Under the pieces are notes generated by a model. The model saw only the letters and a list, made by a program, of their open reading frames with translations, had not been told where the DNA came from and ran no database searches. Shown here piece after piece: positions 3,634 to 37,395 of a DNA stretch of 64,000 nt. Source of the DNA: Chryseolinea sp. GTDB lineage: Bacteria > Bacteroidota > Bacteroidia > Cytophagales > Cyclobacteriaceae. Made by a program: the position numbers and the translations under genes. The DNA lies in assembly GCA_039930485.1 (NCBI GenBank), contig JBDTTT010000007.1, forward strand, positions 6,261 to 70,260. Reading direction: 5' to 3'. Position 1 is the first letter of the stretch. The number at the start of each line of letters is the position of its first letter.

Positions 3634-3664
3634 GCATATTTTTCACATACCGATTTTTAGTTGA

Positions 3665-5107: not shown

Positions 5108-5125
5108 GATCAATACCGGAAGGCC

Positions 5126-5845
5126 ATGACCATCAAACAATATCCTGATTACTCAACGCTATCCCGCGCAACAGCCGACTTAATTGTAGAATACATTAGC
5201 GCTAAGAAAGATTCAATTATTTGTTTAGCATCAGGTCATACACCCCGTGGCGTGTTTGAATGTTTAGTGGATGATGTGAAATCAAATCGTCTTGATATAC
5301 GTAAATGTATTTTTGTTAGTCTGGATGAATGGATTGGTGTAGCGGCATCTCAAAAAGGATCGTGTCGTGAAATGATGGATGTTGATTTTTTTTATCCGCT
5401 TCAAATACCTTCATCACAAATTAAATTCTTTGATGGTTTGACTGATGATCTTGAATTGCAGGTAAGGAATATGAATGCTTTCATTGAATCAAACGGTGGT
5501 CTGGATATTATGTTAGTAGGTATTGGCACCAACGGTCACATTGCTATGAATGAGCCTGGCACATCCTTTAACATCGATGCACACATCAGCACATTAGCAG
5601 AGGAAACAAAAACTGTTGGACAGAAATATTTTCCGGGATCAACCATTTTGGACAAAGGGATTACATTAGGATTAAAACATTTTCGAGAAGCAAAGCTGCC
5701 TATACTGATGGCGAATGGAGAAAAGAAAACGGCCATCATGAAGCAAACACTTTCATCGCCAGCAAGTGAAGCTTTACCCTCCAGTGTTGTTCATCTAATT
5801 CCACAAGGCTATATAATGGTGGACAATTTAGCAGCGGGTAAGTGA
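5126..5845 (+). CDS. Glucosamine-6-phosphate deaminase / 6-phosphogluconolactonase family protein
   Basis: The motifs LASGHTPRGVFE, VSLDEWIGV and LVGIGTNGHIAMNEPG are characteristic of the NagB/Pgl fold family. Confidence 0.8.
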   Translation: MTIKQYPDYSTLSRATADLIVEYISAKKDSIICLASGHTPRGVFECLVDDVKSNRLDIRKCIFVSLDEWIGVAASQKGSCREMMDVDFFYPLQIPSSQIKFFDGLTDDLELQVRNMNAFIESNGGLDIMLVGIGTNGHIAMNEPGTSFNIDAHISTLAEETKTVGQKYFPGSTILDKGITLGLKHFREAKLPILMANGEKKTAIMKQTLSSPASEALPSSVVHLIPQGYIMVDNLAAGK

Positions 5846-5971
5846 GGTAATAATCTTTTATGGAAGATCAATTAGTGATCGTGTCTAATCGGTAGACCGG
5901 CATCTATTGCAAATGCCGCAACTTTGGCGTAGTATTAATTGCATTTATTGAAAACCCTAGCCCAATTGTAA

Positions 5972-6928: not shown

Positions 6929-6993
6929 TTGTAGCTAACTAATCTGTTTTTGGTAATCAGTGATCAGTTTAACCGAATACCGATTACCATTTT

Positions 6994-7548
6994 CTAAACG
7001 GTCATAATCTCCACCTCTTTTTTCTTCAGAAGTGTATCAATGCGATTCATGAAATCGTCCGTCATTTTTTGAACAGTGGCTTCGGCATTTTTTATATCAT
7101 CTTCTGAAGCACCTTTGATTTTCTTTAATTGTTCGTTTATTTCTTTGCGAATGTTACGGATGCTGATGCGGCCTTGCTCACCTTCTTGATTCGCCTGCTT
7201 CACTAACTGCTTCCTTCTTTCTTCTGTTAACATTGGGATGTTAATGATGATTTGTTGACCATCGTTTTGTGGATTGAGTCCCAGGTTCGCATTAATGATG
7301 GTGCGCTCAATTTCACTAATAATATTTTTTTCCCAGGGTTTGATAAAGAGAGTTCGGGCATCAGGTGCCGTTATCGATGATACTTGTTGCAACGGACTCA
7401 TGGCACCATAATAGGATACCAGCAGACCATCTAACATGGATGGATTTGCTTTTCCAGCTCTGATTTTGGTAAGCTCATGTCCTAGATGGTTGATCCCCTT
7501 GGTCATTAATTCGTTGGCTTCGTCAAGGTATAGTTCAATTTCTTCCAT
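6994..7548 (-). CDS. frr: Ribosome recycling factor
   Basis: 184 aa; RAGKANPSMLD, ITAPDARTL, INIPMLTEERRKQLVK and RNIRK are canonical Frr motifs. It is adjacent to pyrH, as in most bacteria. Confidence 0.95.
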   Translation of the reverse strand: MEEIELYLDEANELMTKGINHLGHELTKIRAGKANPSMLDGLLVSYYGAMSPLQQVSSITAPDARTLFIKPWEKNIISEIERTIINANLGLNPQNDGQQIIINIPMLTEERRKQLVKQANQEGEQGRISIRNIRKEINEQLKKIKGASEDDIKNAEATVQKMTDDFMNRIDTLLKKKEVEIMTV

Positions 7549-7574
7549 AGAATAATTTTAGATTTATGATCTAG

Positions 7575-7619
7575 GATTTGTGATTTTTAAGACGCTAACG
7601 AAATCTGAAATCACAAATC
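7575..7619. repeat. Intergenic hairpin (12-bp perfect stem, 21-nt loop) between pyrH and frr
   Basis: gatttgtgattt (7575-7586) is the exact reverse complement of aaatcacaaatc (7608-7619). No clear U-tract follows on the minus strand, so a terminator role is uncertain. Confidence 0.35.
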
Positions 7620-7631
7620 TAAATTCTCAAA

Positions 7632-8339
7632 TTAACTTATCAGCGTGCCGGCTGTCTCTCCATTCGCTACTTTCAACAAGTTTCCTTTCTTGTTCATGTC
7701 GAAAACAATAATCGGAAGTTTGTTTTCCTGGCAAAGAGTAAAGGCGGTCATGTCCATGATGTTCAGATTTTTCTCATACGCTTCCTGAAAAGAAAGAGTA
7801 GTGTATCGAACAGCATCTGGAAATTTCTCCGGGTCTTTCGTATATACACCGTCTACACGAGTCCCTTTTAATACGATGTCGGCTTGCACTTCTATGGCGC
7901 GAAGACTGGCGGTAGAATCCGTAGTGAAATAAGGATTACCAATGCCTGCTCCAAAGATTACAATTCTTCCTTTTTCTAAGTGACGGATGGCTCTGCGTCT
8001 GATGAAGGGTTCGCAAACTTGTTCCATTTTTATACCGGCCATCAACCGTGTGTAAACTCCATGGCGCTCAAGCGCACCTTGCAAGGCCATCGCATTAATA
8101 ACCGTTGCCAACATTCCCATATAATCACCCTGAACCCGGTCGATACCAAGCGCTTCTGCTTGCCCACCGCGGAAAATATTTCCACCACCAATAACAATGG
8201 CCAGTTCAACACCTTGTTCTTTTACTGCTTTTATTTCCTCACAATATTGATCCAATACATTCGGATCGATATTGGTGGTCTTGGATGAACCTTGTAGCGA
8301 CTCACCGCTAAGCTTGAGAACAATGCGTTTGTATTTCAT
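7632..8339 (-). CDS. pyrH: UMP kinase
   Basis: 235 aa; the motifs [20 protein letters not shown] and [12 protein letters not shown] are typical of the PyrH amino-acid kinase family. Confidence 0.95.
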
Positions 8340-8537
8340 GTGTTAGTTATTCTTTTTAAATGGGCACATGTAATGGTCAGGCGTAAGTTCATGCCTTAGC
8401 TCCAAGATTACACGTGACCATTTCATCAGTAAAGGTTAAAATCCAGCAAATATGCCCACTATTTTTTCAGGATTCAAGGTTTTTGACGAAGCAAAGATGC
8501 GTTAATGGATTTTTTTTATTCCTCAGGATGATAAAAT

Positions 8538-9032
8538 TTAGAATTCAATCAGCACCTGACTTTTTTCCACGCTATCTCCCTTCTTTACCTTCACCGATTT
8601 CACAATTCCTTCACCCGGTGATTTAATGATGTTCTCCATCTTCATGGCTTCGAGAATCAATAGCACATCATTTACTTTTACAACATCACCTTCTTTTACT
8701 TTCAAGTCAATGATAAGACCAGGCATGGGAGCCTTGATATTATTTACTTTGCTTGCTGCCTGCGAATTCATTCCCATTTTTTCGAGCAGCAAATCAAATT
8801 TGTCTTTCAGTTCAACCGGATATGTTTTTCCATTAATTTTAATGACACATGTTTTAGTGGCTGCATCTACCTTCACCACTTCTGCGCGATAACTTTCCTG
8901 TTGATGAAGGATATGAAAATGCCCATCTGAAATTTTTGACAGATCCCATTGAAACATTTCCCCGTTGACCATGAAGTCATCCGACTGTTGCTCAATCTCA
9001 AACGACTTGCTATTTACGATCGCTTTATACAT
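8538..9032 (-). CDS. Biotin/lipoyl-attachment domain protein (biotin carboxyl carrier-like)
   Basis: The C-terminal ILEAMKMEN biotinylation motif lies within a biotinyl-domain-like sequence (APMPGLIIDLKVKEGDVV...). Confidence 0.85.
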   Translation of the reverse strand: MYKAIVNSKSFEIEQQSDDFMVNGEMFQWDLSKISDGHFHILHQQESYRAEVVKVDAATKTCVIKINGKTYPVELKDKFDLLLEKMGMNSQAASKVNNIKAPMPGLIIDLKVKEGDVVKVNDVLLILEAMKMENIIKSPGEGIVKSVKVKKGDSVEKSQVLIEF

Positions 9033-9164
9033 GCTTCAAAAATAGAGTATCTGTGTGGAATGTAATGGGTTAGAGGTTAAAAGTTATATGATATTGTGTG
9101 ACTGAGATTGACCATCAACTGCGAATTTTGACTTCATTAAAAAATAACCACTACATTTGCGCTG

Positions 9165-9250
9165 TCGAAAGACAAAGGGGTGCCAAATATAACGGGCTGA
9201 GATTATACCCATAGAACCTGATGCCGGTAATGCGGACGAAGGGAGGCAAG
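9165..9250 (+). promoter_or_regulatory. TPP (THI-box) riboswitch
   Basis: GGGGUGCC (9177-9184), CUGAGA (9197-9202), ACCC (9207-9210) and AACCUGAUGCCGGUAAUGCGGACGAAGGGA (9215-9244) match the conserved THI-box core in order and spacing. The element lies about 60 nt upstream of the TonB receptor start. Confidence 0.85.
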
Positions 9251-9310
9251 TAAACACGTAAGTAAGGTACATTCCCCGATGTGCCTGCGGGTTTAAACTT
9301 TTTAAAAACA

Positions 9311-11668
9311 ATGTTCAAATCAATCATCGTAGCATGTGTAATGCTGCTGTCTGCGCGCGTTGCTGCGCAGGAATTTTCCATTGCGGGAACCGTAAGAGAT
9401 GGAAAAAGTAATCAGGTATTGGCCGGAGCTTCCGTTCAGTTAGAAAAGTCAAATCGCGCTGAGGTAACAGATGCGTTTGGGAAATTTAAGATCGGAAAAT
9501 TATCCGAAGGAAAGTATGTGCTGATCATTCGCTTTCTTGGGTATCAGGAAAAGAGAGAGGAGGTTTCGGTGGCATCAAACTCAAACTTGACCATTCTGAT
9601 GGATGAGTCGGCTCAACTTACCGATGAAGTTGTGGTGTATGCAACACGCGCAAATGAGAAAACCCCAACGACATTTACTAATGTAAGTGGCAAAGCTCTG
9701 CAGTCACAAAACTTCGGACAAGATATGCCAATGCTTCTGAATTGGACTCCTTCTCTGGTCACCACTTCGGACGCTGGATCGGGTGTTGGTTACACTGGGC
9801 TGCGTATCCGCGGAAGCGATGCCACACGCATCAACGTTACGATCAATGGCATTCCATATAACGATAGTGAATCACAATCTACTTATTGGGTTGATATTCC
9901 AGATGTCGCGTCATCGACACAAAGTGTACAGATACAACGTGGTGTGGGCACGTCAACCAATGGCGCAGGTGCGTTTGGTGGAAGTGTAAATGTGCAAACC
10001 ATTTCGCAACAAGCTGATCCGTATGCTGAGGTAATTACTGCTGCCGGATCATTCAATACTCAGCGATATACTTTAAAAATGGGAACGGGATTGATTGATG
10101 GTAAGTGGTCGTTTGACGGACGCGTGTCCAAAATTAAATCGGACGGATACATTGATCGCGCATCGTCCGATCTTGGATCCTATTATTTAAGTGGAGGATA
10201 TTATGGAGCAAAAACCATTATAAAAGCAATTGCATTTGGAGGAACGGAAAAAACATATCAATCGTGGAATGGCAATGATGCCGAAACGATGAAGACCAAT
10301 CGCACCTTTAACTCTGCGGGAGCATTATATGATGAAAACTGGAACGTAACCGGATACTATGACAATGAAGTAGATAATTACAAACAGGATCACTACCAGC
10401 TTCACCTTACTCAAAAGTTTAGTGAGTATTGGAATGCAAATCTTTCGCTTCACTATACACACGGGAGCGGCTATTATGAGCAATACAAACAAGCTCGTGA
10501 TTTTGCAGACTATGGACTTGATAATGTTGTGTTGAAAGACACGACACTCACATCAAGTGATTTCATTGTGCGTAAGTGGCTGGATAATAAATTTTACGGA
10601 ACTACTTTTTCTGTAAACTATGAAAAAGATAAAGTAGGACTTTCTATTGGCGGAGCGTACAATCAGTATGCAAACGCGCGGCACTATGGCGAAATCATAT
10701 GGGCACAGTATTCTTCCAACGCTGCGATTCGTCATACCTATTACGATGGAAAATCCCAAAAGAATGATGGAAACATCTATGGAAAATTGAGCTATGCAGC
10801 TACGAGCACCTTGAATGCTTTTGTGGATTTGCAATACCGATATGTAGACTATAAAACTGCAGGTACAGATGACGACCTGGTGCCGTATAACTTTCACGAT
10901 TCATTTCACTTTTTTAATCCAAAAGCCGGGTTGAGTTATTCAATATCAGGTAGTAATGTTTTGTATGCTTCTTATGCAGTCGCCAATCGTGAGCCCAATC
11001 GCACGGATTATACGGAAGGAGCTGTAAAACCAAAATCGGAAAGATTAAATAATTTGGAAGCAGGCTGGAGAAGAAATACATCGAATCTTCAACTTGAGGT
11101 AAATTATTATTTGATGAACTATACAAACCAGCTTGTCTTAACCGGAGCCATTGATAACGTAGGCAATCCGATTCGCGCCAATGTTGGTAAGAGCGTTCGG
11201 ACGGGAGTTGAAGCATCTGCCACCATTCGATTTTCCAGTCACTGGAGTTGGAATGTAAATGCTACGTTTAGCCGAAATACAAACAAAGATTTTGTATTTG
11301 AAGAAGACAATGCAACGGTAAAACGAAACACAACGATTATTCTTTCACCAAGTGTAATCGCTGGAAGTCAGCTAACATGGACTGCCTTTAAAGGTTTTCA
11401 AACTACACTCCTAACCAAGTATGTAGGCAAGCAATACCTTGACAATACAGAAAACGAAACCCTTACATTGGATCCGTATTTCATTAACGATATCAGGTTC
11501 AATTACTCGTTTCCGCTGAAAGGAATAAAATCACTTAGCTTAAGTTTGTTGTTGAACAACGTATTGGATGTGAAATATTCTTCAAACGGTTACGGCTATG
11601 ATGGCGTACCGTATTTCTTCCCACAAGCCGGAAGAAATTTCATGGCCATGATTTCATTGAAGATTTGA
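9311..11668 (+). CDS. TonB-dependent outer membrane receptor with an N-terminal carboxypeptidase-regulatory-like domain, riboswitch-controlled
   Basis: It has a signal peptide MFKSIIVACVMLLSARVAAQ, a CarbopepD_reg-like start (FSIAGTVRDGKS..), a plug region (VVVYATRANEK.., GLRIRGSD) and a C-terminal barrel ending in F-containing strands. I prefer the ATG at 9311 over the ORF-track GTG at 9281. Confidence 0.9.
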   Translation: MFKSIIVACVMLLSARVAAQEFSIAGTVRDGKSNQVLAGASVQLEKSNRAEVTDAFGKFKIGKLSEGKYVLIIRFLGYQEKREEVSVASNSNLTILMDESAQLTDEVVVYATRANEKTPTTFTNVSGKALQSQNFGQDMPMLLNWTPSLVTTSDAGSGVGYTGLRIRGSDATRINVTINGIPYNDSESQSTYWVDIPDVASSTQSVQIQRGVGTSTNGAGAFGGSVNVQTISQQADPYAEVITAAGSFNTQRYTLKMGTGLIDGKWSFDGRVSKIKSDGYIDRASSDLGSYYLSGGYYGAKTIIKAIAFGGTEKTYQSWNGNDAETMKTNRTFNSAGALYDENWNVTGYYDNEVDNYKQDHYQLHLTQKFSEYWNANLSLHYTHGSGYYEQYKQARDFADYGLDNVVLKDTTLTSSDFIVRKWLDNKFYGTTFSVNYEKDKVGLSIGGAYNQYANARHYGEIIWAQYSSNAAIRHTYYDGKSQKNDGNIYGKLSYAATSTLNAFVDLQYRYVDYKTAGTDDDLVPYNFHDSFHFFNPKAGLSYSISGSNVLYASYAVANREPNRTDYTEGAVKPKSERLNNLEAGWRRNTSNLQLEVNYYLMNYTNQLVLTGAIDNVGNPIRANVGKSVRTGVEASATIRFSSHWSWNVNATFSRNTNKDFVFEEDNATVKRNTTIILSPSVIAGSQLTWTAFKGFQTTLLTKYVGKQYLDNTENETLTLDPYFINDIRFNYSFPLKGIKSLSLSLLLNNVLDVKYSSNGYGYDGVPYFFPQAGRNFMAMISLKI

Positions 11669-11676
11669 TACTTAAC

Positions 11677-11725
11677 TCTTTGCGTCTCTGTGCCTCTGCG
11701 GTGAAAACTTACCGTAGAGACGCAG
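11677..11725. repeat. REP-like imperfect inverted repeat / possible terminator downstream of the TonB receptor
   Basis: ctctgcggt (11693-11701) pairs with accgtagag (11711-11719) with one G-U. The flanks contain degenerate copies of a ctctg[tc]g[ac]ctct motif in inverted orientation. Confidence 0.4.
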
Positions 11726-11812
11726 AGTCACAGAGAAATAATGAGTTATAACTAAACCTCATCCGTTGCATCATTTCTAACCCTCTGCTCGTTACTTTTG
11801 TCATTAAGCGTC

Positions 11813-12670
11813 ATGACAAGAGCCAAAACAAAAAAAAGAAATTTTATCGAAGCAGTGCTGAAACTAACACGCTTTGGCAATCTCACCATTATCGGTTTGG
11901 CGCAATATTTTACTGCAGCATTTCTGATTGATAAGAGTATTGTATTTGATCTTGAGTTGTTCCTTCTATCATGTTCTACCGTTTTAATTGCTGCGGCAGG
12001 CTACATCATTAATGATTACTATGATGTAAAGATCGACTTCATCAACAAACCAGAACGTGTTGTCATTGGAAGAAGCATTGCCAGGCGATATGCTATTTTG
12101 TTTCATGTGGCATTGTCATTTTTGGGTATTTTAATCGGGACATATTTGTCTTTGAGAGTAGGTGCACTCAATATACTTTCAGTGTTCCTACTTTGGCTTT
12201 ACTCTAATAACCTGAAGCGCTTACCGCTCATTGGTAATGTAACCGTAGCTTTTCTTACAGGACTTTCAATATATATGGTAGAGGTTTACTACCGAACCGG
12301 AAACTCGTTGGTCTTGATCTATGCCAGCTTTGCATTCTTCATGACATTGATCCGTGAGATCATAAAAGATATGGAAGACTTGAAGGGCGACAATACCTTT
12401 GGTTGCAAAACCCTTCCCATCATCTTGGGCATTCGCAAGACGAAGATGGTGATCTATAGTATTCTAACGGCCTTCTCTATTACCGTTCTGGTGCTCAACT
12501 ACTTTTACGTGGGCTTGTCTATTTACTACTTCCTGCTTTGCCTGTTTATCCCGTTGCTTATTTTACTCTTGCGCCTGATTCGCGCAGATCGGATGAAAGA
12601 CTTTGCATGGTTGAGTACCTTCAGTAAGGTAATTATGTTGCTTGGCATTCTCAGTATGGCCTTTTTATAG
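11813..12670 (+). CDS. UbiA-family prenyltransferase (integral membrane)
   Basis: It is multi-TM, with an aspartate-rich NDYYDVKID motif and a second D-rich segment (KDMEDLKGD) typical of the UbiA superfamily. I chose the ATG at 11813 over the TTG at 11798. Confidence 0.8.
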   Translation: MTRAKTKKRNFIEAVLKLTRFGNLTIIGLAQYFTAAFLIDKSIVFDLELFLLSCSTVLIAAAGYIINDYYDVKIDFINKPERVVIGRSIARRYAILFHVALSFLGILIGTYLSLRVGALNILSVFLLWLYSNNLKRLPLIGNVTVAFLTGLSIYMVEVYYRTGNSLVLIYASFAFFMTLIREIIKDMEDLKGDNTFGCKTLPIILGIRKTKMVIYSILTAFSITVLVLNYFYVGLSIYYFLLCLFIPLLILLLRLIRADRMKDFAWLSTFSKVIMLLGILSMAFL

Positions 12671-12693
12671 GCATATCCTTTTTTGATATGAAA

Positions 12694-19454: not shown

Positions 19455-20618
19455 ATGAGAAATTTCTTCAACATCATTATTCTATTAGGTGCGCTGCAAG
19501 GACTCATCATTGGGGCATTGCTTTTTTTTAAGAAGGGAGGAACGCACGCCAATCGAATTCTGGCGATTCTCATCCTGATTATCTCAATGGCTTGTTTCAA
19601 TATTTACCTTATGGAAATAGGAGCAAGGTATTCATATAGTTTTTGGGCTGCGATTGAGGTGTACATTCCGTTTATAATAGCCATGCCCATTGGCCCTCTT
19701 ATCTTTTTCAATACAAAGGCAAATCTTAACTCAACGTTTAGAATAAGTAGTACCGATCGCATTCATTTCTATCCATTGATTCTAGATCTCATTCCAAACA
19801 TCACCTTTATTCTTTTCGCTATAGGATTATTGATGGGATTTTTATCTGAAGAGGATCGAACAAACTGGCGATACTTTGCTGATGAATACAATACCTATAT
19901 AGATATTCCCCGGTGGATTTCGATCTCAATCTATGTATTGCTGGCAAAAAGAGAGATTGATCTCATTACGTTAAACAGTAATGAGATCAAGAAATCACTG
20001 AGATGGCCTAAACGGTTTGTATTTGTATTCTTAATGTTTCAATTGATATGGCTGCTTCATCTTATTCCGTATGTAATCCCTGGAGTAAGCGATTCGTTAT
20101 TGAAATTAGTAGGATGGTATCCAATCTATATTCCACTGGCCGTGATGGTGTATTGGCTAGGCATTAATGGCTACCTGGTTAGTCAGGCAAAGTCGCGAGA
20201 AACATCTGCCAGCAAACCATTGGCCTTGTCTGACGATGTAGTAAATCAAACCAAAAATATTTTGCGTCAGGCGATGGAAGAGGATAAACTTTTTCTTGAT
20301 CCTCTATTTAATCTGACGGCATTAGTTCATCATACAGGTATTCAGCAAAAAATTATTTCGAGTGTTTTGAATCAACACCTTGGCAAAAGTTTTAATGACT
20401 TCGTGAATGAGTACCGTGTTAATGAGGTCAAAAAGAAATTAGTGAAGTCGGATTACAATCACTTAACGATTACCGGAATTGCAATGGAGTGTGGCTTTAA
20501 TTCACAAGCCACTTTTCAAAGAACCTTTAAACATATTGTTGGCCAATCGCCAAGGGAATTTCAGTCAGAGCATCTTGCATCAACTCAAAAAATGCCGACA
20601 AAGACTGCTCAAATCTAG
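19455..20618 (+). CDS. Membrane-embedded AraC-family transcriptional regulator (about 7 TM N-terminal domain plus C-terminal HTH)
   Basis: Multiple hydrophobic helices occupy the first ~240 aa. The C-terminal ITGIAMECGFNSQATFQRTFKHIVGQSPREF is the AraC/XylS HTH signature. Confidence 0.8.
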   Translation: MRNFFNIIILLGALQGLIIGALLFFKKGGTHANRILAILILIISMACFNIYLMEIGARYSYSFWAAIEVYIPFIIAMPIGPLIFFNTKANLNSTFRISSTDRIHFYPLILDLIPNITFILFAIGLLMGFLSEEDRTNWRYFADEYNTYIDIPRWISISIYVLLAKREIDLITLNSNEIKKSLRWPKRFVFVFLMFQLIWLLHLIPYVIPGVSDSLLKLVGWYPIYIPLAVMVYWLGINGYLVSQAKSRETSASKPLALSDDVVNQTKNILRQAMEEDKLFLDPLFNLTALVHHTGIQQKIISSVLNQHLGKSFNDFVNEYRVNEVKKKLVKSDYNHLTITGIAMECGFNSQATFQRTFKHIVGQSPREFQSEHLASTQKMPTKTAQI

Positions 20619-20671
20619 ATTTGAGATGATTTTAGTTCAGATCAATTGTTTCTTGCGAGAAAAATTTAACG

Positions 20672-22360
20672 ATGAAGATCTCTTTCCTGCCCTTTCTGTT
20701 TTGTTTAATATTTTCTCCGTTTGTTTCATGGACACAAATAAAGCAAGAACAAAAGATTGATTCTCTGTTTATTAATTGGCAAGTAAAAGAAAGTCCGGGT
20801 GGTGTAGTTGCAATACTTCAAGAAGGAAATGTAATCTATAAAAAAGCTTTTGGTCTGGCGGATATTGAAAAGAAGATCAAGAACTCACCAGAACTAAAAT
20901 ATGATCTCGCCTCCATTGCCAAACAGTTTACTGCATTTTGCATTGCACTCCTGGACGAGCAGGGCAAACTTTCAGTTGAAGATGATCTGACGAAATACTA
21001 TCCGGAATTTCAGTATCCCGAAGGAATAAAGATTAAGAATTTATTGGATCACACCAGTGGCATTCGCGAAGCGTATGTCTTGGCCATGCTTTCGGGAAAA
21101 ATGAATTTGAAGGGAGAAGTTCCAAAAAAATACAATACAAAAGAATTCTTGCTAAAAGTGTTGTCTAAGGAAAAAGATCTCAACTTTAAAACCGGTGACG
21201 AATTAGCCTACACCAACGTCAATTACATTTTGCTGGGTGACATTGTTGAACGCGTAAGTAAAAGACCGCTGCATGTTTTTGCCGACAGCGTTATTTTCAA
21301 ACCACTTGGCATGAACAATACCGTTTTCAGATACAAACAAAAGATGGAGATTCATGGTGAAGCTTCAGGGTATTATCAAAAAAATAAAAAATTTAAAAAA
21401 GGAAAAGCTTTCGGTGGTATTGTGGGCGATCATAATTTGCTCAGTACGATTGATGATCTTATCAAGTGGGAGTTAAACTTTTATAATAATCAATTGGGAA
21501 AACGAAATCAGCAGCTAATTGATAAAGTCTACGCGAGCAGTAAGCTGAATAATGGTGAACTCACTCATTATGCTTATGGACTCTGGACTAACGAGTATCG
21601 CGGACTCAAACAAATTAATCATGGTGGAGATGATGGCCGGCATACCTCCTTCATTTTAAAATTTCCTGAAAAACAACTTGATATAATCGTACTAGCGAAC
21701 TCCTATCGCTATAACGATACTGAAAGTAAGGCCTATGGCATCGCCAATATTATTTTGGAGGATTTTCTTACAAAACCTATTGAATCAAATGAGCCTGCCG
21801 ATATCATATTCCCTTTAGCAGAGGAGCTAAAAACAAAGACAGGATTATATACAAGAGTAACAAAGGAAGGATTAGCGCAACTTCGAAAAATAAGTTTTGT
21901 GGATAGCAGCTTATACATCAGTGCTTCTTATTACGGTAATGGTATTAAACTTTCGGCAACAACGAACAATATTTTCGTTGCTACAACGGGTTACGGCAAG
22001 CGTATTCAATTCCAGTTTGAAAATGATTCCGCCCAGTTAGTATTGAAAGAAATTTTTGGTGAGAAGATCGGATACTTTAAACGTATGAAAGAATTCAAAC
22101 CCGTATTCACAAACTTTCTAGGATCGTATGTAAACGAGAGCACAGGAGCAAAATTGAAAGTGAAGAAAAGGAAGAATGGAATTGTGGCGCGAAAAGGTAT
22201 TATCAAATTTCCATTAATTGTATTTGACCGCGATCAATTCTTCGCATTTCAACATGATGCTCTTTTTATTTTTGAACGCGATGCTTCTGGAAAAGTGATT
22301 CGGCTAAAAGCAAACGCAAAAGATTTCAGAAATTTTGTATTCACACGGCACCAAAACTGA
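20672..22360 (+). CDS. Serine hydrolase of the beta-lactamase / PBP4-like (class C-like) family
   Basis: It has a signal peptide, an S-x-x-K motif (SIAKQF), YTNVNY (Y-x-N) and HGG near the C-terminal part of the catalytic domain. Confidence 0.8.
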   Translation: MKISFLPFLFCLIFSPFVSWTQIKQEQKIDSLFINWQVKESPGGVVAILQEGNVIYKKAFGLADIEKKIKNSPELKYDLASIAKQFTAFCIALLDEQGKLSVEDDLTKYYPEFQYPEGIKIKNLLDHTSGIREAYVLAMLSGKMNLKGEVPKKYNTKEFLLKVLSKEKDLNFKTGDELAYTNVNYILLGDIVERVSKRPLHVFADSVIFKPLGMNNTVFRYKQKMEIHGEASGYYQKNKKFKKGKAFGGIVGDHNLLSTIDDLIKWELNFYNNQLGKRNQQLIDKVYASSKLNNGELTHYAYGLWTNEYRGLKQINHGGDDGRHTSFILKFPEKQLDIIVLANSYRYNDTESKAYGIANIILEDFLTKPIESNEPADIIFPLAEELKTKTGLYTRVTKEGLAQLRKISFVDSSLYISASYYGNGIKLSATTNNIFVATTGYGKRIQFQFENDSAQLVLKEIFGEKIGYFKRMKEFKPVFTNFLGSYVNESTGAKLKVKKRKNGIVARKGIIKFPLIVFDRDQFFAFQHDALFIFERDASGKVIRLKANAKDFRNFVFTRHQN

Positions 22361-22429
22361 AGTTCTCCAATCTCTTTGAAAGAATTTCTTGACTGTTATT
22401 TAAAAATTCGTTTATTTGCTTAACAAAAC

Positions 22430-22456
22430 ATAAGGATATATAAAGTATAAGGATAT
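22430..22456 (+). promoter_or_regulatory. Direct repeat ataaggatat x2 spanning the PadR start codon (candidate operator)
   Basis: Identical 10-mers occur at 22430-22439 and 22447-22456, a 17-nt period. The second copy contains the PadR ATG at 22455. Confidence 0.3.
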
Positions 22457-22787
22457 GGCAAAGGAATATTTGGGAGAGTTTGAGGAGTTGATTTTAACCA
22501 TGGTGGCTGCTTTGCAAGAAGATGCATACGGTGCCGCCATCTCAGAAGAAATTGAAACGCGATTGAAACGCGAAGTGAACCTGAGCGCGGTACACGTAAC
22601 GCTATACCGCCTGGAAGATAAAGGACTCATCAAATCGAGTTTGGGCGGAGGTACGAATGAAAGAGGAGGAAGACGAAAAAGAATTTTCACCATTACCAGT
22701 GCGGGCATGGCCATGTTGCGTGCGATGAAAGAAGCAAGAATTGATTTGTGGAAGTTGGTTCCTCAATTGAAGATGACAGGAATATGA
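22455..22787 (+). CDS. PadR-family winged-helix transcriptional regulator
   Basis: 110 aa; GEFEELIL...AYGAAISEEIE...VHVTLYRLEDKGLIKS...GGRRKRIFTITSAG matches the PadR wHTH pattern. Its stop overlaps the next start (ATGA at 22784-22787). Confidence 0.85.
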   Translation: MAKEYLGEFEELILTMVAALQEDAYGAAISEEIETRLKREVNLSAVHVTLYRLEDKGLIKSSLGGGTNERGGRRKRIFTITSAGMAMLRAMKEARIDLWKLVPQLKMTGI

Positions 22788-25396
22788 ACGAACAACTTCC
22801 AAAATGGATGTTGAAATTTCTCAAATGGTTTTGCCCTGAACATTTGTATGAAGAGATCGAAGGTGATCTCATTCAGAAATTTAATCGGGATGTAAAAGCT
22901 TTTGGTGATAGCAGCGCAAAGAGAAGATTGGTATTGAATTCTATTCGTTTTTTCAGACCGGGAATTATACTTCGAAATAAATATGTGTTAACCCCAATGC
23001 CTTTCTATATGCTAGCAAATTATTTCAAAATCGCCTTACGGATAATGTTGCGAAATAAAGGATATTCAGCGATCAATATTTTCGGTCTTGCTTTTGGTAT
23101 GACCGGTGCTATTCTTCTCGGATTATGGATATCACGGGAATTTAGTTACGATCAGTTTCATGCAGATAAAGAACGAATCTATAAAGCATGGAATCGTACA
23201 AAGGCCCAAGGTGAATGGCAATGCTGGGACATTACGCCTCGTGTGCTGGCTCCAACTTTGGTATCTGATTTTTCTTCCGTAGAATCTGCAGTGAGTTTAT
23301 CCTATTATAACGACTCATATTTGTTTTCCGTTGGCGATGTACACATCATGAAGAACAATGCTTCATTTGCCGATCCCGAGTTTCTTACCATGTTTTCATT
23401 TCCACTTATAAAGGGTGATGCTAAGAAAGCACTGGGTAATGCCAACTCCATTGTGTTAACGGAAGGCTTTGCTCACAAACTCTTCGGAGATAAAGAAGCG
23501 TTTGGTGAAAGTCTAACCATTTCGCAGGCAGAGTATGACATTCCGTTTACCGTAACTGGGATTTTAAAAGATCTTCCTTCCAACACCGATTTTCATTTTG
23601 AATTTCTTATTCCATGGCAATTTATCGAAAGTAATTATGGCAAGGATACGGAGTGGAACAACAACTCGGTGAGTTCGTATGTGAAAATAAAAGAGGGCAT
23701 ATCTTTCGAAACATTAAATCGGGAAATTAAAGACATTAAGAAAAAAAACACAAAGGGAAGTGATGAGACGGAAATATTTCTGTATCCGATTACTAAAATG
23801 CATCTCTATTCACGGTTTGAAAATGGAGTAGCGGTTGGTGGTCGCATCGAGATCATGCGGATGCTAGGCATTTTAGGTGTATGTCTTGTTGTCATTGCGT
23901 GCATCAACTTTATTAATTTAAGTACAGCACGGGCTGCCAGAAGATCAAAAGAAGTAGCCGTTCGAAAAGTGACCGGTGCATTTCGATATTCTCTTATCGT
24001 CCAGTTTTTATGTGAGTCGGTCTTGGTTGCCTTTGGTGCTGGTGTTATCTCATTATTTGCTGTTTATCTCGCATTACCTTTTTTCAATACATTGGTGCAG
24101 CAACAACTTGAATTGAACTTTAGTGATTACGCTTTCTGGGTATTCGCTGTTGCAGCTATTGTCTTTATCGGCCTAATGGCAGGAAGTTATCCTGCATTTT
24201 ATCTGTCATCATTTCAACCGGTCCGCATATTGAAGGGAGTACCAATTGTTTCGAATAGCAGAAATGTGTTTCGGTCCTTGCTTGTGATATTTCAATTTGG
24301 GTTTGCTCTTACGTTAATTACCTCTACGGTTGTGATTTATCAGCAGACTGCTTATTTGCAAAACAGAGAATCCGGTTACGCTAAAAACAATTTGGTATAC
24401 CAGCTTATGACGGGTGACCTCATTAAAAATTTTCAAGCCTACAAAAACGAGTTGATTGAATCCGGTGTAGCAGTTTCTGTAACGCGAACAAGTTCTCCCA
24501 TCACAGAAAGACTAAGCAACACTTCTGGAATGAAATGGAACGGAAAAGACCCTGAAAATAAATCGGAAGTAGAGCGATTTTATGTTGACGAAAATATTTC
24601 TGCAACGGCTGGTGTTAAAATCCTGAAAGGAAGAGATATGAATCTTGGAAAATATCCATCCGATTCTACTGCTGTGCTGTTGAATGAATCAGCCGTGAAC
24701 ATGATGGGCTTTAAAGAACCGCTTGGTGAAATAATTGAAGACAATGGTATTCCATGGCATGTTGTAGGTGTTGTTCAGGATTTTATTCTTACCTCGCCCT
24801 ATAAGAAAGTTGAGCCCATTGTATTGTTAGGAAGTAAAGGCGGAGACAATGGTATGTTTGGTGTGATTCATATCCGACTCAATCCGGAGCAAACTACAAA
24901 AATGAATCTGGCTACAATTGCCAAAGCCTTTTCAAAATACAATCCTGACTATCCGTTTGAATATCACTTTGTAGATGTAGAGTATGCGCGAAAATTTGCG
25001 AACGTTAAAGCAACACTCACCATCACGTCTTTATTCAGTGGCATTGCCATCTTCATCGGTTGCCTCGGATTATTAGGACTATCAACCTACATGATTGAGG
25101 CACGCGTAAAAGAAATTGGTATTCGCAAAGTAATGGGCGGATCGGTATTCAATATCATTCGATTATTAAGTGGTCATTCATTGAAGCCCATTGTGTGGGG
25201 GATATTAATATTTAGTCCGGGTGCATGGTGGGCTATGAATTGGTGGCTTCAATCTTTTGAATACCGGATCTCATTTTCGGTTTGGGTAATCGTTGCAGCA
25301 GCAGCATCCATTCTTTTGCTCGCATTGCTCACCATTACACTTCAGATCTATAAAGCCGCGCGCGTTAATCCTATAAAGAGTTTGAGAACAGAATAA
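22784..25396 (+). CDS. Prefix-domain duplicated FtsX/MacB-type ABC permease, paralogue 1
   Basis: N-terminal WFCPEHLYEEIEGDLIQKFNRD module, then two TM-ECD-3TM halves. The coupling-helix motifs are RSKEVAVRKVTGA and RVKEIGIRKVMGG. I chose the ATG at 22784, not the ORF-track GTG at 22748. Confidence 0.85.
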   Translation: MNEQLPKWMLKFLKWFCPEHLYEEIEGDLIQKFNRDVKAFGDSSAKRRLVLNSIRFFRPGIILRNKYVLTPMPFYMLANYFKIALRIMLRNKGYSAINIFGLAFGMTGAILLGLWISREFSYDQFHADKERIYKAWNRTKAQGEWQCWDITPRVLAPTLVSDFSSVESAVSLSYYNDSYLFSVGDVHIMKNNASFADPEFLTMFSFPLIKGDAKKALGNANSIVLTEGFAHKLFGDKEAFGESLTISQAEYDIPFTVTGILKDLPSNTDFHFEFLIPWQFIESNYGKDTEWNNNSVSSYVKIKEGISFETLNREIKDIKKKNTKGSDETEIFLYPITKMHLYSRFENGVAVGGRIEIMRMLGILGVCLVVIACINFINLSTARAARRSKEVAVRKVTGAFRYSLIVQFLCESVLVAFGAGVISLFAVYLALPFFNTLVQQQLELNFSDYAFWVFAVAAIVFIGLMAGSYPAFYLSSFQPVRILKGVPIVSNSRNVFRSLLVIFQFGFALTLITSTVVIYQQTAYLQNRESGYAKNNLVYQLMTGDLIKNFQAYKNELIESGVAVSVTRTSSPITERLSNTSGMKWNGKDPENKSEVERFYVDENISATAGVKILKGRDMNLGKYPSDSTAVLLNESAVNMMGFKEPLGEIIEDNGIPWHVVGVVQDFILTSPYKKVEPIVLLGSKGGDNGMFGVIHIRLNPEQTTKMNLATIAKAFSKYNPDYPFEYHFVDVEYARKFANVKATLTITSLFSGIAIFIGCLGLLGLSTYMIEARVKEIGIRKVMGGSVFNIIRLLSGHSLKPIVWGILIFSPGAWWAMNWWLQSFEYRISFSVWVIVAAAASILLLALLTITLQIYKAARVNPIKSLRTE
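22826..22897 (+). repeat. Conserved 72-nt 5' box, copy 1 of 5
   Basis: tggttttgccctgaacatttgtatgaagagatcgaaggtgatctcattcagaaatttaatcgggatgtaaaa. The 26-nt core gatctcattcagaaatttaatcggga is identical to copy 2. Confidence 0.9.
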
Positions 25397-25431
25397 GTCA
25401 TCATCAAGCCAGAATCTTTTCAAGAGAAGGC

Positions 25432-28131
25432 ATGAAAGAAGAAAGAGATACGATACCCTCTAAAGCAACGGTGCAATTCCTCTCATGGTTTTGTCCGGAT
25501 CATATCTATGAAGAAATTGAAGGCGATCTCATTCAGAAATTTAATCGGGATATAAGAACAGTTGGCGAGAAACGAGCGAAGCGAAAATTGATTTGGAATA
25601 CCGTTTGTTTCTTCAGACCTGAAATTATTTTACGAAATACATTTTCATATTCTTTAATCAATACCATTATGCTTCGAAACTATTTTACCATCGCCTTTCG
25701 AAATGTTCTGAAGAACAAAGTGTTTTCGGCTATTAACATTTTTGGATTGGGTATTGGATTGGCAGCGTGTCTGCTCATCTTTCAATTCGTGAGTTTTGAA
25801 TTGAGTTACGATACATTCAGTGAGAAATTGGATCGTACCTATCGTGTTACGAACGATCGATTTCAAAATGGAAAGTTAATTCAGCATGGCACAATCATGT
25901 ACCCTACCATTGGTCCAACAATGGCTAAGGATTATCCAGAGATTGAGATGTATACGCGCCTGATGCCAGGAGGCGATCTGAATATTAAGGTCGATGAAAA
26001 GATTTTCAAAGGAGAGAATTCTCATTTTGTTGATGAGCACTTTCTTTCTGTTTTCAGTTTCCCCATGCTGGCAGGAGAGAGACTTACGGCTTTGAAAGAT
26101 CGATATACGATGGTAATCACAGAGAGAACCGCTATTAAATACTTTGGCGTTCCGGATAAGAACTATTCGAGCGTACTCGGCAAGGAAGTGTATTGGGGGC
26201 TTGACACTCAACCCTATAAAATAACAGGAGTTTGTACTAATGTTCCTGAAAACTCACATCTTCAATTTGATGGACTTGTTTCTTATTCTACACTGATCTA
26301 TCCGCAAGACCATGGTGCGGATGATAGTTGGACCTGGTCTGACATGTATCACTATCTCGTGTTGAAACCAGGAGTGGATTACAAAACGCTTGAAGCAAAA
26401 TTCCCGGAGTTCAGTCAACGCTATTTTCAAGGTGACAAAGTTTCGGGCAGTGTTGAAAAATTTTACTTGCAACCGATGAAGAATACACACTTGTATTCAG
26501 ACTATGAGTATGACTTCGCAAAGACAGCAAGTGGTAAAGCAGTATGGGCCATGGTTATTGTTGCCGTTTTTGTTTTGCTCATTGCGTGGATCAATTACAT
26601 AAACCTTACTACATCGCGTGCACTTGATCGCGCTAAAGAAGTGGGCTTACGAAAAGTAATGGGAGCTTTGAGATCACAATTGATTAAACAATTTCTGTTT
26701 GAATCGATACTCATTAGTCTTTTTGCTTTTGTGATTGCTCTAGCCATTGTAATGCTTTCTCAATCCTCATTCAACGAAATGATTAATGGAAATCTTTCGT
26801 GGTGGAAGGTGCTGTCGGAAATGAATGCATCGACTACCATGATTTTAGTTTCAGTAATGATTACGGGTGTTCTGCTATCCGGCTTTTATCCTGCATTTGT
26901 TTTATCATCCTATCATCCAGTCACAGTTTTGAAAGGGAAATTTCAGCGATCTTCTCGTGGACAATTCTTAAGAAAATCTTTAGTAGTGTTTCAGTTCACT
27001 TCATCAGCCGCATTAATTACAGGAACACTGGTCGTTTCAAAGCAACTTCGCTTTATGAATGAAGCGGATCTCGGAGTGAATATTCACAACACATTGATTG
27101 TTCAGGCACCTGAGCGCACGGCTTGGGATTCCACATTTATTCAACGCGTGGAATCATATAAACATGAGCTTACTCAAATTAAGGGTGTCGTCAGCGCCAC
27201 AACATCCTGGCGACTTCCCGGTGATCGATTGGGAAGAAGTTTTGGTATCCGCCTAAGCGATCAACCTTCTGATGCTCATTTTACGATGAGTCATCAAGGT
27301 GTGGATCATAACTTTTTTGATACGTATGACATAGCCATACTGGCAGGCAGAAAATTTCTGCCGACAGATCACAGAATAGATTTTGATAAAATTGAAGCAG
27401 TCATTTTAAATCTTAATGCTATCAAGCTTCTCGGAATAGACAGCCCTCAAAATGCAATTGGAAAGCAAATTATTTGGGGAGATTCCAAAACAAAAATTAC
27501 GATCGTGGGAGTGGTGAATAATTTTCACCAACAGTCATTGAAGAACCCGATGGAGCCGATGATCTTTGCTCCTGCTTATAGTACCAACTCGTCTACTTCA
27601 ATCAAGCTAGACAACACATACAAAGACAAGCCGCAAAAAATTATAGCCGATGTTCGGGAAGCGTTCTTAAAGTTCTTCCCAGATAATGCGTTCGAATACA
27701 CCTTCCTTGAGGACAGGTTCAAGCATCAATACAATGACGACAATCGTTTCGGCAAGGTGATTAGTGTATTTACTTTACTCGCCATTATCATTTCATGTTT
27801 AGGTCTTGTGGGATTATCATCATACATGGCGATTCAACGCACGAAAGAAATTGGCATTCGAAAAGTATTAGGTGCTTCGCTTTTCAGTATCGTGACACTG
27901 CTCTCCAGCGGCTTTATAAAATTGGTGCTACTCGCAACGCTTCTTGCTTTACCTATTGCTTATATCGCTGCAGAGAACTGGCTTGAGGGATATGCTTACA
28001 AAATTAGTCCGGGTGTTTTGATTTTTGCATTGCCAGTGATTTTGATCTTACTCATAGCATCCTTTACCATGAGTTTTCAAGTGCTGCGAACAGCGAGAAC
28101 CAATCCTGCGGACACATTGAAATATGAGTAG
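25432..28131 (+). CDS. Prefix-domain duplicated FtsX/MacB-type ABC permease, paralogue 2
   Basis: It has WFCPDHIYEEIEGDLIQKFNRD, the motifs RAKEVGLRKVMGA and RTKEIGIRKVLGA, and 8 predicted TM in a 1+3+1+3 layout. Confidence 0.9.
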   Translation: MKEERDTIPSKATVQFLSWFCPDHIYEEIEGDLIQKFNRDIRTVGEKRAKRKLIWNTVCFFRPEIILRNTFSYSLINTIMLRNYFTIAFRNVLKNKVFSAINIFGLGIGLAACLLIFQFVSFELSYDTFSEKLDRTYRVTNDRFQNGKLIQHGTIMYPTIGPTMAKDYPEIEMYTRLMPGGDLNIKVDEKIFKGENSHFVDEHFLSVFSFPMLAGERLTALKDRYTMVITERTAIKYFGVPDKNYSSVLGKEVYWGLDTQPYKITGVCTNVPENSHLQFDGLVSYSTLIYPQDHGADDSWTWSDMYHYLVLKPGVDYKTLEAKFPEFSQRYFQGDKVSGSVEKFYLQPMKNTHLYSDYEYDFAKTASGKAVWAMVIVAVFVLLIAWINYINLTTSRALDRAKEVGLRKVMGALRSQLIKQFLFESILISLFAFVIALAIVMLSQSSFNEMINGNLSWWKVLSEMNASTTMILVSVMITGVLLSGFYPAFVLSSYHPVTVLKGKFQRSSRGQFLRKSLVVFQFTSSAALITGTLVVSKQLRFMNEADLGVNIHNTLIVQAPERTAWDSTFIQRVESYKHELTQIKGVVSATTSWRLPGDRLGRSFGIRLSDQPSDAHFTMSHQGVDHNFFDTYDIAILAGRKFLPTDHRIDFDKIEAVILNLNAIKLLGIDSPQNAIGKQIIWGDSKTKITIVGVVNNFHQQSLKNPMEPMIFAPAYSTNSSTSIKLDNTYKDKPQKIIADVREAFLKFFPDNAFEYTFLEDRFKHQYNDDNRFGKVISVFTLLAIIISCLGLVGLSSYMAIQRTKEIGIRKVLGASLFSIVTLLSSGFIKLVLLATLLALPIAYIAAENWLEGYAYKISPGVLIFALPVILILLIASFTMSFQVLRTARTNPADTLKYE
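25486..25557 (+). repeat. Conserved 72-nt 5' box, copy 2 of 5
   Basis: tggttttgtccggatcatatctatgaagaaattgaaggcgatctcattcagaaatttaatcgggatataaga. Confidence 0.9.
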
Positions 28132-36495: not shown

Positions 36496-37395
36496 CTACT
36501 TTTGATATGAAACCGCAGCTTTGATTTTCACAAAATTCGGAATGTTGAAAAGAACTAAGGCAACAATGATGATAAAGTACCCAACGATTTGAATGGTACT
36601 AATGGTCTCTTTAAAAACCACAAAGGCAATTGAGAAATTAAGCAGTGGATTGATATACATTAAAATCCCAATGGTTGCCGAGTTGATTTTATTGAGCGCG
36701 AAGAGATTGAGGAATAAAGGAAGCACAGTAAATAATATGGCAATGCTTATAATGATGGCATAGAACTCAGAAGTCACAGGAACAGAATGAATAAGCTGGC
36801 CATAGAAGAAATTCAAAATCAGAAAAGAAAAAAGTACTTGAATGCCCAGCATCACCATACGATCGAACCCTTGATTTCTTCTTTGTGTGATGAGATACAA
36901 AGCATAGGTAAACGCAGTTAAGAAACTATAACCCAATTCAAATGCTGAGTTAATACCCATTAAAATACAACTCACTGCACAGAGGGCCACAGCTGCCCAT
37001 TGAAGTTTAGTCAATCGTTCTTTGATCAATACGTATCCTAATACAGCAGTGATAACAGGACAAATTAAATACGAGAAAGAAGCTGTTTTGATATTAACAT
37101 TATTAACGATGTAAATGAAGGTAAGCCAGTTCACGGTGAGTAATGCTCCTCCGGCAAGTGTAAGTCCGATGACTTCTCTTTGTTTTGTTTTGGCTAGTCC
37201 GTTGAAGAACGCCCAATCCTTTTTGATGTCTTTTCGTTTGAAACCAAAAACAATAATCAATAAAACGAGAGCCGAAAACAAAATTCTGAAATAGAGGATT
37301 TCTCCAGCAGAAAATTCCTTTAAAGCTCGCAACGGGATGGAGAAAAATCCCCAGATTACAAAAGCAGAAATAGCAGCCGCGTAATGTTTATTCAT
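36496..37395 (-). CDS. EamA/DMT-family transporter (RarD-like)
   Basis: 299 aa with 10 predicted TM helices in two EamA-like halves. The N-terminal AISAFVIWGFFSIP..L resembles RarD-type proteins. Confidence 0.8.
   Translation of the reverse strand: MNKHYAAAISAFVIWGFFSIPLRALKEFSAGEILYFRILFSALVLLIIVFGFKRKDIKKDWAFFNGLAKTKQREVIGLTLAGGALLTVNWLTFIYIVNNVNIKTASFSYLICPVITAVLGYVLIKERLTKLQWAAVALCAVSCILMGINSAFELGYSFLTAFTYALYLITQRRNQGFDRMVMLGIQVLFSFLILNFFYGQLIHSVPVTSEFYAIIISIAILFTVLPLFLNLFALNKINSATIGILMYINPLLNFSIAFVVFKETISTIQIVGYFIIIVALVLFNIPNFVKIKAAVSYQK

Follow-up and report, generated by a model that had tools for sequence, protein, structure and literature searches.

Array-wise gene conversion as a probable source of silent-site similarity in the prefix-coding 5' ends of a tandem permease array of Chryseolinea

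Background

The window analysed here is a stretch of 64,000 nucleotides (nt) from Chryseolinea sp. (GenBank assembly GCA_039930485.1, contig JBDTTT010000007.1). It carries a gene for a PadR-family transcriptional regulator followed by five paralogous permease genes, g1 to g5. Each permease begins with a small prefix domain, and within the sequence coding for this domain lies a box of 72 nt whose silent sites are much alike in all five copies, while the rest of the genes is strongly diverged. The first-pass annotation of the window named three possible causes, namely recurrent gene conversion, a function at the nucleotide level (a messenger RNA structure, a binding site or a translational pause) and a role as homology tracts for unequal crossing-over. 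The comparison of the array with related loci indicated that constraint on the protein, together with array-wise gene conversion of the 5' segment coding for the prefix, probably explains the silent-site similarity.

Methodology

Related loci were collected by a back-translated search using one genome per species. The search gave 73 loci, all from Cytophagales (Chryseolinea, Ohtaekwangia, Cyclobacteriaceae, Imperialibacter and Larkinella), and one contig of the Joint Genome Institute (JGI), L154, was added to them. A codon alignment of 201 prefix domains and 146 full-length genes was made from the 73 loci and the window. Codon identity was counted at positions having the same amino acid, and the expected identity of the box core was simulated from the codon usage of the same genes. 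The comparison within and between genomes was made for ancient paralogues (body identity <45%), again at same-amino-acid sites. The proportion of synonymous differences (pS) among the window paralogues was calculated by the Nei-Gojobori method.

Results and Discussion

The PadR gene and the five permeases of 871-899 codons each form a compact array on the plus strand (22455-36060). The coordinates of the genes and boxes are given in Table 1. The stop codon of PadR and the start of g1 share ATGA, and 8-nt overlaps are present at each of g2/g3, g3/g4 and g4/g5; because gene ends overlap gene starts in this way, PadR and the permeases look like one translationally coupled array. All five proteins matched the NCBIfam model NF038404 (perm_prefix_2) over residues ~6-69 with 46.8-57.1 bits (curated cut-off 35). 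Each of them contains two Pfam FtsX domains (PF02687) and one or two MacB_PCD domains (PF12704), and the two MacB_PCD/FtsX modules per polypeptide are those of the ADOP permeases. The whole-protein scores against TIGR03434 (ADOP) were 203-316 bits, below the curated cut-off of 622.3, and on these profile matches the proteins are best classed as ADOP-like, related to TIGR03434 but outside its curated membership. The genes flanking the array included no ABC ATPase (PF00005), so that, judged from flanking genes only, the locus has the 'orphan' character of ADOP; the association with a PadR-family regulator is also an ADOP feature and was seen in 57 related arrays headed by PadR.

The AlphaFold model of the g3 protein (mean predicted local distance difference test score, pLDDT, 86.8) has two periplasmic domains and two four-helix membrane modules. 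The prefix is modelled as a confident helical bundle on the cytoplasmic side (helices 8-17, 20-41, 43-56 and 60-67). The long central helix 20-41 contains the box peptide with pLDDT ~90, and the first transmembrane helix (residues 93-121) begins ~55 residues after the box.

Table 1: Genes of the array and positions of the five boxes in the window
Feature	Position	Strand	Remarks
PadR-family transcriptional regulator gene	22455..22787	+	Pfam PF03551, 37 bits; array head
g1 permease	22784..25396	+	ADOP-like duplicated FtsX/MacB_PCD; perm_prefix_2 at ~22799-22978
g2 paralogous permease	25432..28131	+	prefix ~25474-25638
g3 paralogous permease	28124..30805	+	prefix ~28157-28321
g4 paralogous permease	30798..33413	+	prefix ~30828-30992
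g5 paralogous permease	33406..36060	+	GTG start; prefix ~33451-33591
Box copy 1	22826..22897, core 22847-22891	+	central helix of prefix domain
Box copy 2	25486..25557, core 25507-25551	+	
Box copy 3	28169..28240, core 28190-28234	+	
Box copy 4	30840..30911, core 30861-30905	+	
Box copy 5	33460..33531, core 33481-33525	+	L003 nucleotide homology resumes at 33463

The five boxes reported earlier were all recovered when the window was searched with a degenerate form of their 45-nt core. Exactly five matches were obtained, all on the plus strand and each 21 nt inside the start of a box, and none was expected from 100 shuffles. The peptide YEEIEGDLIQKFNRD is invariant in all five proteins, which are otherwise only 28.5-36.7% identical overall. 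The long identical stretch noticed in copies 1 and 2 was found to be 27 nt, with 1-2 differences in the other copies. Four copies have CGG for the Arg of NRD and the fifth has CGA, and most Arg codons of KRR are AGA, which agrees with the first reading of these codons; CTC, CGG and CAG are rare codons common to most window copies. The third-codon positions had been described as largely fixed. They are indeed similar, but fixation was an overstatement, as pairs of copies differ at 2-5 of the 45 core nt.

The claim that the silent sites are conserved beyond the need of the protein was borne out by codon identity. In the 15-codon core, 114/150 comparisons at same-amino-acid positions were identical (0.76) against 0.48 expected; the simulated mean was 71.3 with a standard deviation (sd) of 7.3, which gives z = 5.84. 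The observed value was reached in 0/5000 codon-usage simulations, and codon-usage bias alone, which had been put forward as a possible objection, does not predict these identities. Outside the core, the remainder of the genes had a codon identity of 0.393 against 0.374 expected. The island had been thought to be limited to 72 nt; the excess extends ~100 nt beyond the box and stops only with the prefix domain (alignment columns 41-75, 0.56 vs 0.35, z 5.4).

The pS values of the window paralogues followed the same course. They were 0.45 in the core of 15 codons, 0.50 in the 72 nt first delimited, 0.56 in the prefix remainder, 0.59-0.66 in the two KE[VI]GIRKVLGA motifs and 0.764 in the gene bodies, and 169 body windows gave a mean of 0.765 (sd 0.051, minimum 0.643). 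The box has only ~8 variable silent sites and the bodies are saturated, so that a conversion test (GENECONV/RDP) restricted to the five window genes would do no more than pick out the segment conserved at the protein level; the analysis relied on comparing orthologues with paralogues. A trough in synonymous divergence confined to the box had been expected from sliding windows; the trough is real but wider, ~100-190 nt, and takes up most of the ~180-nt prefix. The KE[VI]GIRKVLGA motifs had been chosen beforehand as the yardstick against which the box should stand out. The trough of the box is deeper than theirs, but the motifs also lie below the body level and have a weaker excess in codon identity (0.51-0.52 vs 0.36).

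These observations raise the question of whether any exchange between the genes is needed at all. Protein constraint, codon bias and site-specific preferences, such as AGR codons for Arg at sites toggling between Lys and Arg, might suffice. The box consists mostly of two-fold degenerate residues whose preferred codons end in A or T, and its expected identity is already as high as 0.48; the KE[VI]GIRKVLGA motifs have some excess in codon identity and pS too, and several prefix sites have family-wide codon preferences. The same codon usage, however, never produced the observed core identity in the simulations, and composition-matched body columns gave an expectation of 0.50 for the window box where 0.76 was observed. 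The comparison with other genomes bears further on this explanation.

Orthologues of the window genes, except g3, were found at 60-92% body identity, while the window paralogues are ~30% identical, which argues that the paralogues are far older than the divergence of these genomes. The array of locus L003 is syntenic with that of the window, its PadR being 97% identical to the window PadR; it contains g1' (92%), g2' (90%), g3* (47% to g3) and g5' (92%), and g4 is absent. Orthologues of g2 are present in L003 (90%), L012 (86%), L016 and L066, and the g2 prefix is still orthologous, with 87% nt identity to L003. The g5 body is 92% identical to those of L003 and L043; its prefix is 78-81% identical in nt to theirs, no nearer than to non-orthologues. 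The g4 orthologue of L072 (86%) is followed by a g5 orthologue, and this unit is missing from the arrays of L003 and L043. A scan of metagenome contigs with g3 gave nothing nearer than 49%; a protein search then gave one orthologue at 86%, P0002 in L154, which is the only close one and bears a different, array-specific prefix.

A separate observation concerns g2. Between the window and L003 (~7300-10000) the synonymous divergence (dS) of the g2 body is 1.24, about twice that of g1 (0.75) and g5 (0.58), and the dS of the g2 prefix, 0.66, is at the level of the g1 and g5 bodies. Allelic replacement of the g2 body or a difference in rate may account for this excess.

The silent-site similarity was found to be specific to the genome. 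Codon identity within vs between genomes was 0.651 vs 0.512-0.518 in the box, 0.532 vs 0.440 in the prefix remainder, 0.41 vs 0.375 in the KEVG motifs and 0.379 vs 0.361 in conserved body columns. Shuffling of the locus labels gave z = 10 for the box, 7.9 for the prefix remainder and 4.3 for the conserved body columns, the last being a tiny effect. Composition-matched body columns predicted 0.476 within and 0.459 between genomes, where the box had 0.651 and 0.512. The codon identity of the box was 0.76 inside the window and 0.62-0.65 inside other genomes, and it was 0.56 between the window and all others. At Leu22, for example, CTC is used in all five window copies, and the 186 other domains use CTG (.26), CTT (.24), CTC (.22) and TTG (.20). 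At Arg28, CGG is used in four window copies and the family uses CGT (.27), CGC (.22) and CGG (.20). An explanation free of exchange meets a difficulty here, the conserved body motifs differing by merely 0.035-0.04 within vs between genomes.

The prefix and the body of the same gene were also found to have different histories. Between close orthologues (85-96% body identity), pooled pS rose from 0.39 in the body to 0.47 in the prefix and 0.53 in the box; the box pS of the window paralogues, 0.45, is below that of the close orthologues, despite the saturated bodies (0.76) of the paralogues. In 15 of 32 orthologue pairs (80-97% body identity), the prefix had a lower pS than the body (median difference +0.005, Wilcoxon p = 0.24), and these comparisons found no synonymous purifying selection in the box or prefix between orthologues. 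The proportion of nonsynonymous differences (pN) was higher in the prefix than in the body in 26 of the 32 pairs (p = 3.6e-5). At 90% body identity, orthologues reach only 80.5% in the prefix, while paralogues with 29.5% body identity reach 62-69% there. The nt identity of orthologues is lowered over the first ~55 codons and is back at the body level at the end of the prefix. The closest prefixes to those of g1, g3, g4 and g5 belong to non-orthologues. In the prefix segment, paralogues within a genome are thus closer than orthologues, which is the mark of concerted evolution, and the phylogeny of the tract is incongruent with that of its flank, as is characteristic of gene conversion.

The clearest single case in the window is g1. 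Its body is 92% identical in amino acids (85% nt) to that of L003 g1', while the prefix is only 60% identical in nt to that of g1' and 72-75% identical to those of the window paralogues. The prefix of L003 g1' is of the type CPAHLAEEIEGDLLQKYERDLKKF (…AEEIEGDLLQKYERDLKKF…), which is common to the distant g1 orthologues of L073, L030 and L026. The window g1 has the type found in its neighbouring genes, and on this comparison its prefix is best read as replaced by a neighbour-type prefix. It was also observed that L003 has an extra gene for a 303-aa DUF2268/GldB-like protein (3724-4635) between PadR and g1', which is absent in the window, and that L073 (~9062) has the same arrangement together with an L003-type g1 prefix. 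Insertion or deletion of the extra gene and replacement of the g1 prefix appear to go together, because L073 has both the L003 arrangement and the L003-type prefix.

Stronger cases were found in other arrays. The contig L154 (JGI Ga0620600_0005278, 1154-12677) contains two adjacent PadR-led arrays, each with its own prefix variant, and the variants are clearly distinct at the amino-acid level. In the first array, the 86% orthologue of g3 carries the peculiar prefix of the other genes there, with which it shares an insertion and 87% nt identity; the two genes of the second array share another variant at 90% nt, and the bodies of both arrays are ~27-30% identical. Ahead of the start called for the first gene of L154 (1713), an intact prefix is present. 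Within-array prefix identity reaches 91% nt in the second array of L053 and 85% in L042, compared with which the window (69-75%) is a moderate case. The tracts shared in L154 and L053 are 87-91% identical over ~135-171 nt and end at the prefix boundary. Constraint and codon preference without exchange account neither for these array-specific variants and the replaced g1 prefix nor for the greater divergence of prefixes than of bodies between close orthologues, and such an explanation is considered quite unlikely.

It is considered likely instead, on the comparison of these sequences, that protein constraint together with array-wise gene conversion at the prefix-coding 5' end produced the silent-site similarity; of the causes proposed earlier, recurrent gene conversion is the one backed by the genome and array specificity, the decoupling of prefix and body and the replaced g1 prefix. 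In this mechanism, selection at the protein level would fix the box peptide, and the first ~170-190 nt of the genes would evolve in concert, giving the extra similarity at silent sites. Through homologous recombination (gene conversion), neighbouring genes of one array would copy or exchange short stretches. The common ancestor of the prefixes would be much younger than that of the gene remainder, because prefix segments are exchanged within the array. The process would be self-reinforcing, as the stretch under the strongest protein constraint would keep the longest identity runs (~14-27 nt) and stay the preferred substrate. We infer RecA-type short-patch conversion as the mechanism, and likewise the direction and date of single events. 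Selection for a uniform prefix, for example through a shared partner such as the cognate PadR, may have helped to fix the converted copies.

Several points weigh against this interpretation. None of the window copies could be matched to a donor with a long tract of near identity; for the g1 prefix, the best match is 78%. The whole-prefix nt identity among the window paralogues is only 69-75%, so that conversion in the window would have to be old, short-patch, or both. When the identical 15-residue peptide was drawn from five different genomes, the mean codon identity was 0.62 (sd 0.048), and the 0.76 of the window was reached in 0.5% of such draws, so that the margin is +0.14 (P ~0.005). Departures of the window genes from the orthologue consensus match other window paralogues in 31/77 cases (0.40), a modest value beside the ~0.29 of other-genome sets. 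The comparison loci are mostly metagenome-assembled, L003 being a chromosome-level Chryseolinea record, and the orthologue pairs share sequences and are hence non-independent. Finally, some codon preferences are family-wide, as for Ile23 (ATT 84% vs 49% background), Val30 (GTA 73% vs 26%) and Arg41 (AGA 69% vs 18% background); these may come from Lys/Arg toggling or from a young coalescence of all prefixes.

More preferences of the same kind were observed for Lys (AAG 71% vs 35%), Leu (TTG 61% vs 24%) and Gly (GGG 41% vs 13%). The preference sites are at positions 23, 30, 39-42, 48, 51, 53, 55 and 57 of the prefix hidden Markov model (L001-L073). They are mostly downstream of the box, and their window equivalents are at ~22880-22970 in g1.

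The box could also be a functional element at the nucleotide level, such as a messenger RNA hairpin, a site for a small RNA or protein, or a pause signal, kept by purifying selection on silent sites. The rare CTC, CGG and CAG codons shared by most window copies would fit such an element, and so would a stem of GUCCCGAU with AUCGGGAU, which was present in four of five folds with an inner GAGAUC/GAUCUC pairing. The between-genome codon identity of the box, 0.512, is slightly above the composition-matched 0.459, and some sites have a family-wide codon preference. The box and prefix, however, are without silent-site constraint among orthologues, and the codons that drive the signal (CTC for Leu and CGG for Arg) are not kept family-wide. 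In L003, the closest relative, AGA or CGA stands where the window has CGG, so that the stem is broken; of 182 family members, only 35-48% can form its outer pairs, and the changes follow no compensatory pattern. Folding of the five boxes with their flanks gave z-scores of -1.89, +1.67, -1.00, -1.41 and +0.71, that is, no consistent stability. A permissive scan of 22000-36500 against Rfam gave no match at E <= 1. Neither a conserved structure with covariation nor membership of a curated family, by which a structured cis-regulatory RNA would be recognised, was found. According to the g3 model, a pause at the box, ~55 codons before the first transmembrane helix, would not be able to aid the targeting of that helix, because the first membrane helix is still untranslated when the box is read. 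The nucleotide-level function proposed earlier is therefore regarded as highly improbable.

A second possible stem was seen in the same region. GTCCCGAT (Cys-Pro-Asp codons) and ATCGGGAT (Asn-Arg-Asp codons) could form an 8-bp stem enclosing the box, at 30847-30854 with 30898-30905 in g4 and at 33467-33474 with 33518-33525 in g5, and this stem would favour the rare CGG codon for Arg. As a conserved element the CCCGAT/ATCGGG stem of g4 and g5 was rejected; it is absent in g3, broken in L003 and not family-wide.

The number of units in the array was found to vary between relatives, as would be expected if the boxes served as homology tracts for unequal crossing-over. The window segment 28327-33463 (the g3 body and g4, 5136 nt) takes the place of 2486 nt of the g3* body in L003, and the difference of 2650 nt is one whole unit, g4 being present in one array and absent in the other. 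The homology with L003 is lost at ~28327, directly behind the g3 prefix, and is regained at the start of the g5 box region. Both the window and L072 have the g4 unit ahead of g5, and the arrays of L003 and L043 lack it; the orthologous bodies differ in order, set and neighbours in nearly every genome, behind a conserved PadR. Stubs consisting of the prefix only were found at cassette boundaries, one of 55 aa in L154 and others of ~20-40 codons before PIN gene pairs in at least 6 loci. It could be argued from this that the box is kept as a recombination handle, selection favouring arrays that swap, gain and lose permease cassettes of 2.65 kb, with silent identity itself selected.

The junctions give less support to such a handle. 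No clean hybrid junction was found. In three-way and six-way alignments, the prefix of L003 g5' is a fine-scale mosaic that resembles g4 or the consensus ahead of the box and g5 beyond it, with interspersed patches; the g3* body of L003 is 47% identical to g3 and ~28% to g4 and is not a hybrid of the two. A single unequal crossover deleting g4 in L003 was looked for in these alignments, which have a patchwork and not one switch point. The stretch of identity that RecA usually needs for efficient recombination is as long as these 12-27-nt identical runs or longer, which also counts against a handle. Selection for evolvability is hard to demonstrate, and exchange as a by-product is the simpler explanation. 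Whole-unit exchange at the box is thus plausible and partly supported by the breakpoints and stubs, while selection for the exchange property is unproven, and maintenance of the box for this purpose is judged unlikely.

The stubs have some further features. The 55-codon stub of L154 lies at 6824-6991, at the end of the first array and just before the second PadR. The loci with a stub and PIN genes are L072, L043, L033/L034 (~6604), L026 (~9566), L036 (~158) and L001 (~693). The order in them is ~20-40 prefix codons, then a PIN_3 toxin (~133 aa) and a 69-aa antitoxin on the reverse strand, and then an intact permease, and the stubs break off at prefix positions 19-36, in or just past the box. 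In L072 the stub and toxin-antitoxin region is 9977-10747, with the two toxin-antitoxin genes at 10120-10524 and 10525-10734 on the minus strand; in L043 the region is 9945-10655, with the toxin-antitoxin genes at 10031-10642, also on the minus strand.

The regulator at the head of the array is itself strongly conserved. PadR is 75-97% identical in amino acids across genera, far above the conservation of the permeases, and it heads almost every related array. The prefix might therefore be an array-specific module that co-evolves with its cognate PadR, for example as a membrane tether or sensor, the box doubling as a portable recombination handle; this proposal is doubtful. If it were true, conversion would keep every permease of the operon matched to its own PadR, and permease bodies, and even toxin-antitoxin cassettes, would be swappable among PadR-led arrays as a modular transporter cassette system. 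In loci with two arrays (L022, L059, L053 and L154), the more divergent PadR was observed together with the more divergent prefix. The correlation of PadR identity with prefix identity in 57 arrays (Spearman 0.48 for the first gene and 0.28 for downstream genes) was set aside as evidence of co-evolution, being confounded by phylogeny.

Around the array, the upstream flank (19455-22360) contains a membrane-anchored AraC-type regulator and a 562-aa protein of the beta-lactamase fold, both syntenic with L003. The downstream flank contains an EamA transporter on the opposite strand (36496-37395 region) and a protein without a Pfam match. A scan for promoters and terminators found them no more often in the array than in shuffled sequence; the sigma-70 consensus is also unsuited to Bacteroidota.

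Known bacterial examples of concerted evolution are the tufA/tufB genes and the ribosomal RNA operons. As in amoA/amoB and other concerted paralogues, where homologous recombination acts, copies within the genome are here closer than orthologues between genomes. Unlike in classic concerted evolution, only a 5' segment of ~100-190 nt is homogenised here, and the other 2.4 kb of the genes are saturated (~30% amino-acid identity). In the window, moreover, homogenisation is partial (box pS 0.45) and apparently array-specific, while other arrays reach 85-91% nt. Gene conversion as a cause of concerted evolution is established in prokaryotes, and the survey of the subject (PMC6053082) does not mention permeases.

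A pattern of conserved ends and divergent middles maintained by segmental conversion is found in babA/babB and other hop genes of Helicobacter pylori and in the opa genes of Neisseria; recombination restricted to the conserved ends of diverged paralogues gives chimeras there whose ends and middles have separate histories, and the present array would resemble them in this. Those genes, however, are dispersed loci of pathogens concerned with antigenic and adhesin variation, whereas the present ones are tandem, co-transcribed inner-membrane permeases of soil and freshwater Cytophagales, for which phase or antigenic variation is not implied. In polymorphic toxin loci (Rhs and CdiA-CT orphan modules), conserved motif-coding sequence bounds swappable modules. 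The likeness lies in architecture only, with a short conserved coding segment between constant and swappable parts and with truncated stubs. In the present array it is a whole transporter that varies, behind a tiny constant part at the N-terminus, and there is no toxin/immunity logic.

The nearest relatives by family are the ADOP permeases (TIGR03434) with their PadR regulators (TIGR03433), which resemble the present genes in the duplicated MacB_PCD and FtsX domains, the clustered paralogues, the lack of an adjacent ABC ATPase and the link with PadR. The window proteins differ from them in scoring far below the family cut-off and in having a prefix of the Bacteroidota type (NF038404). Clusters of ADOP genes, as large paralogous families of unknown function, have been described in the Bacteroidota Psychroflexus torquis (PMC3914696) and Dyadobacter (PMC11573002), and the cluster of Psychroflexus torquis contains a toxin-antitoxin (addiction) module (PMC3914696). 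The literature search gave no account of the function, evolution or homogenisation of the prefix domain.

Conclusion

The pattern is real but fairly ordinary, a fresh example of a known process. Probable array-wise conversion of the prefix-coding segment, acting with protein constraint, would explain a striking raw-sequence pattern without a hidden regulatory element. It would add a clean bacterial case of segment-restricted concerted evolution and would leave the understanding of the process unchanged. In practice, the first ~65 codons should be left out when the orthology and phylogeny of these genes are worked out. The prefix and PadR form an obvious candidate pair for a physical or regulatory interaction. 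For the family as a whole, the result would mean that a large and functionally uncharacterised group of transporters of soil Bacteroidota evolves as a mosaic, in which the prefix is homogenised within each PadR-led array while the permease bodies diverge and are reshuffled.

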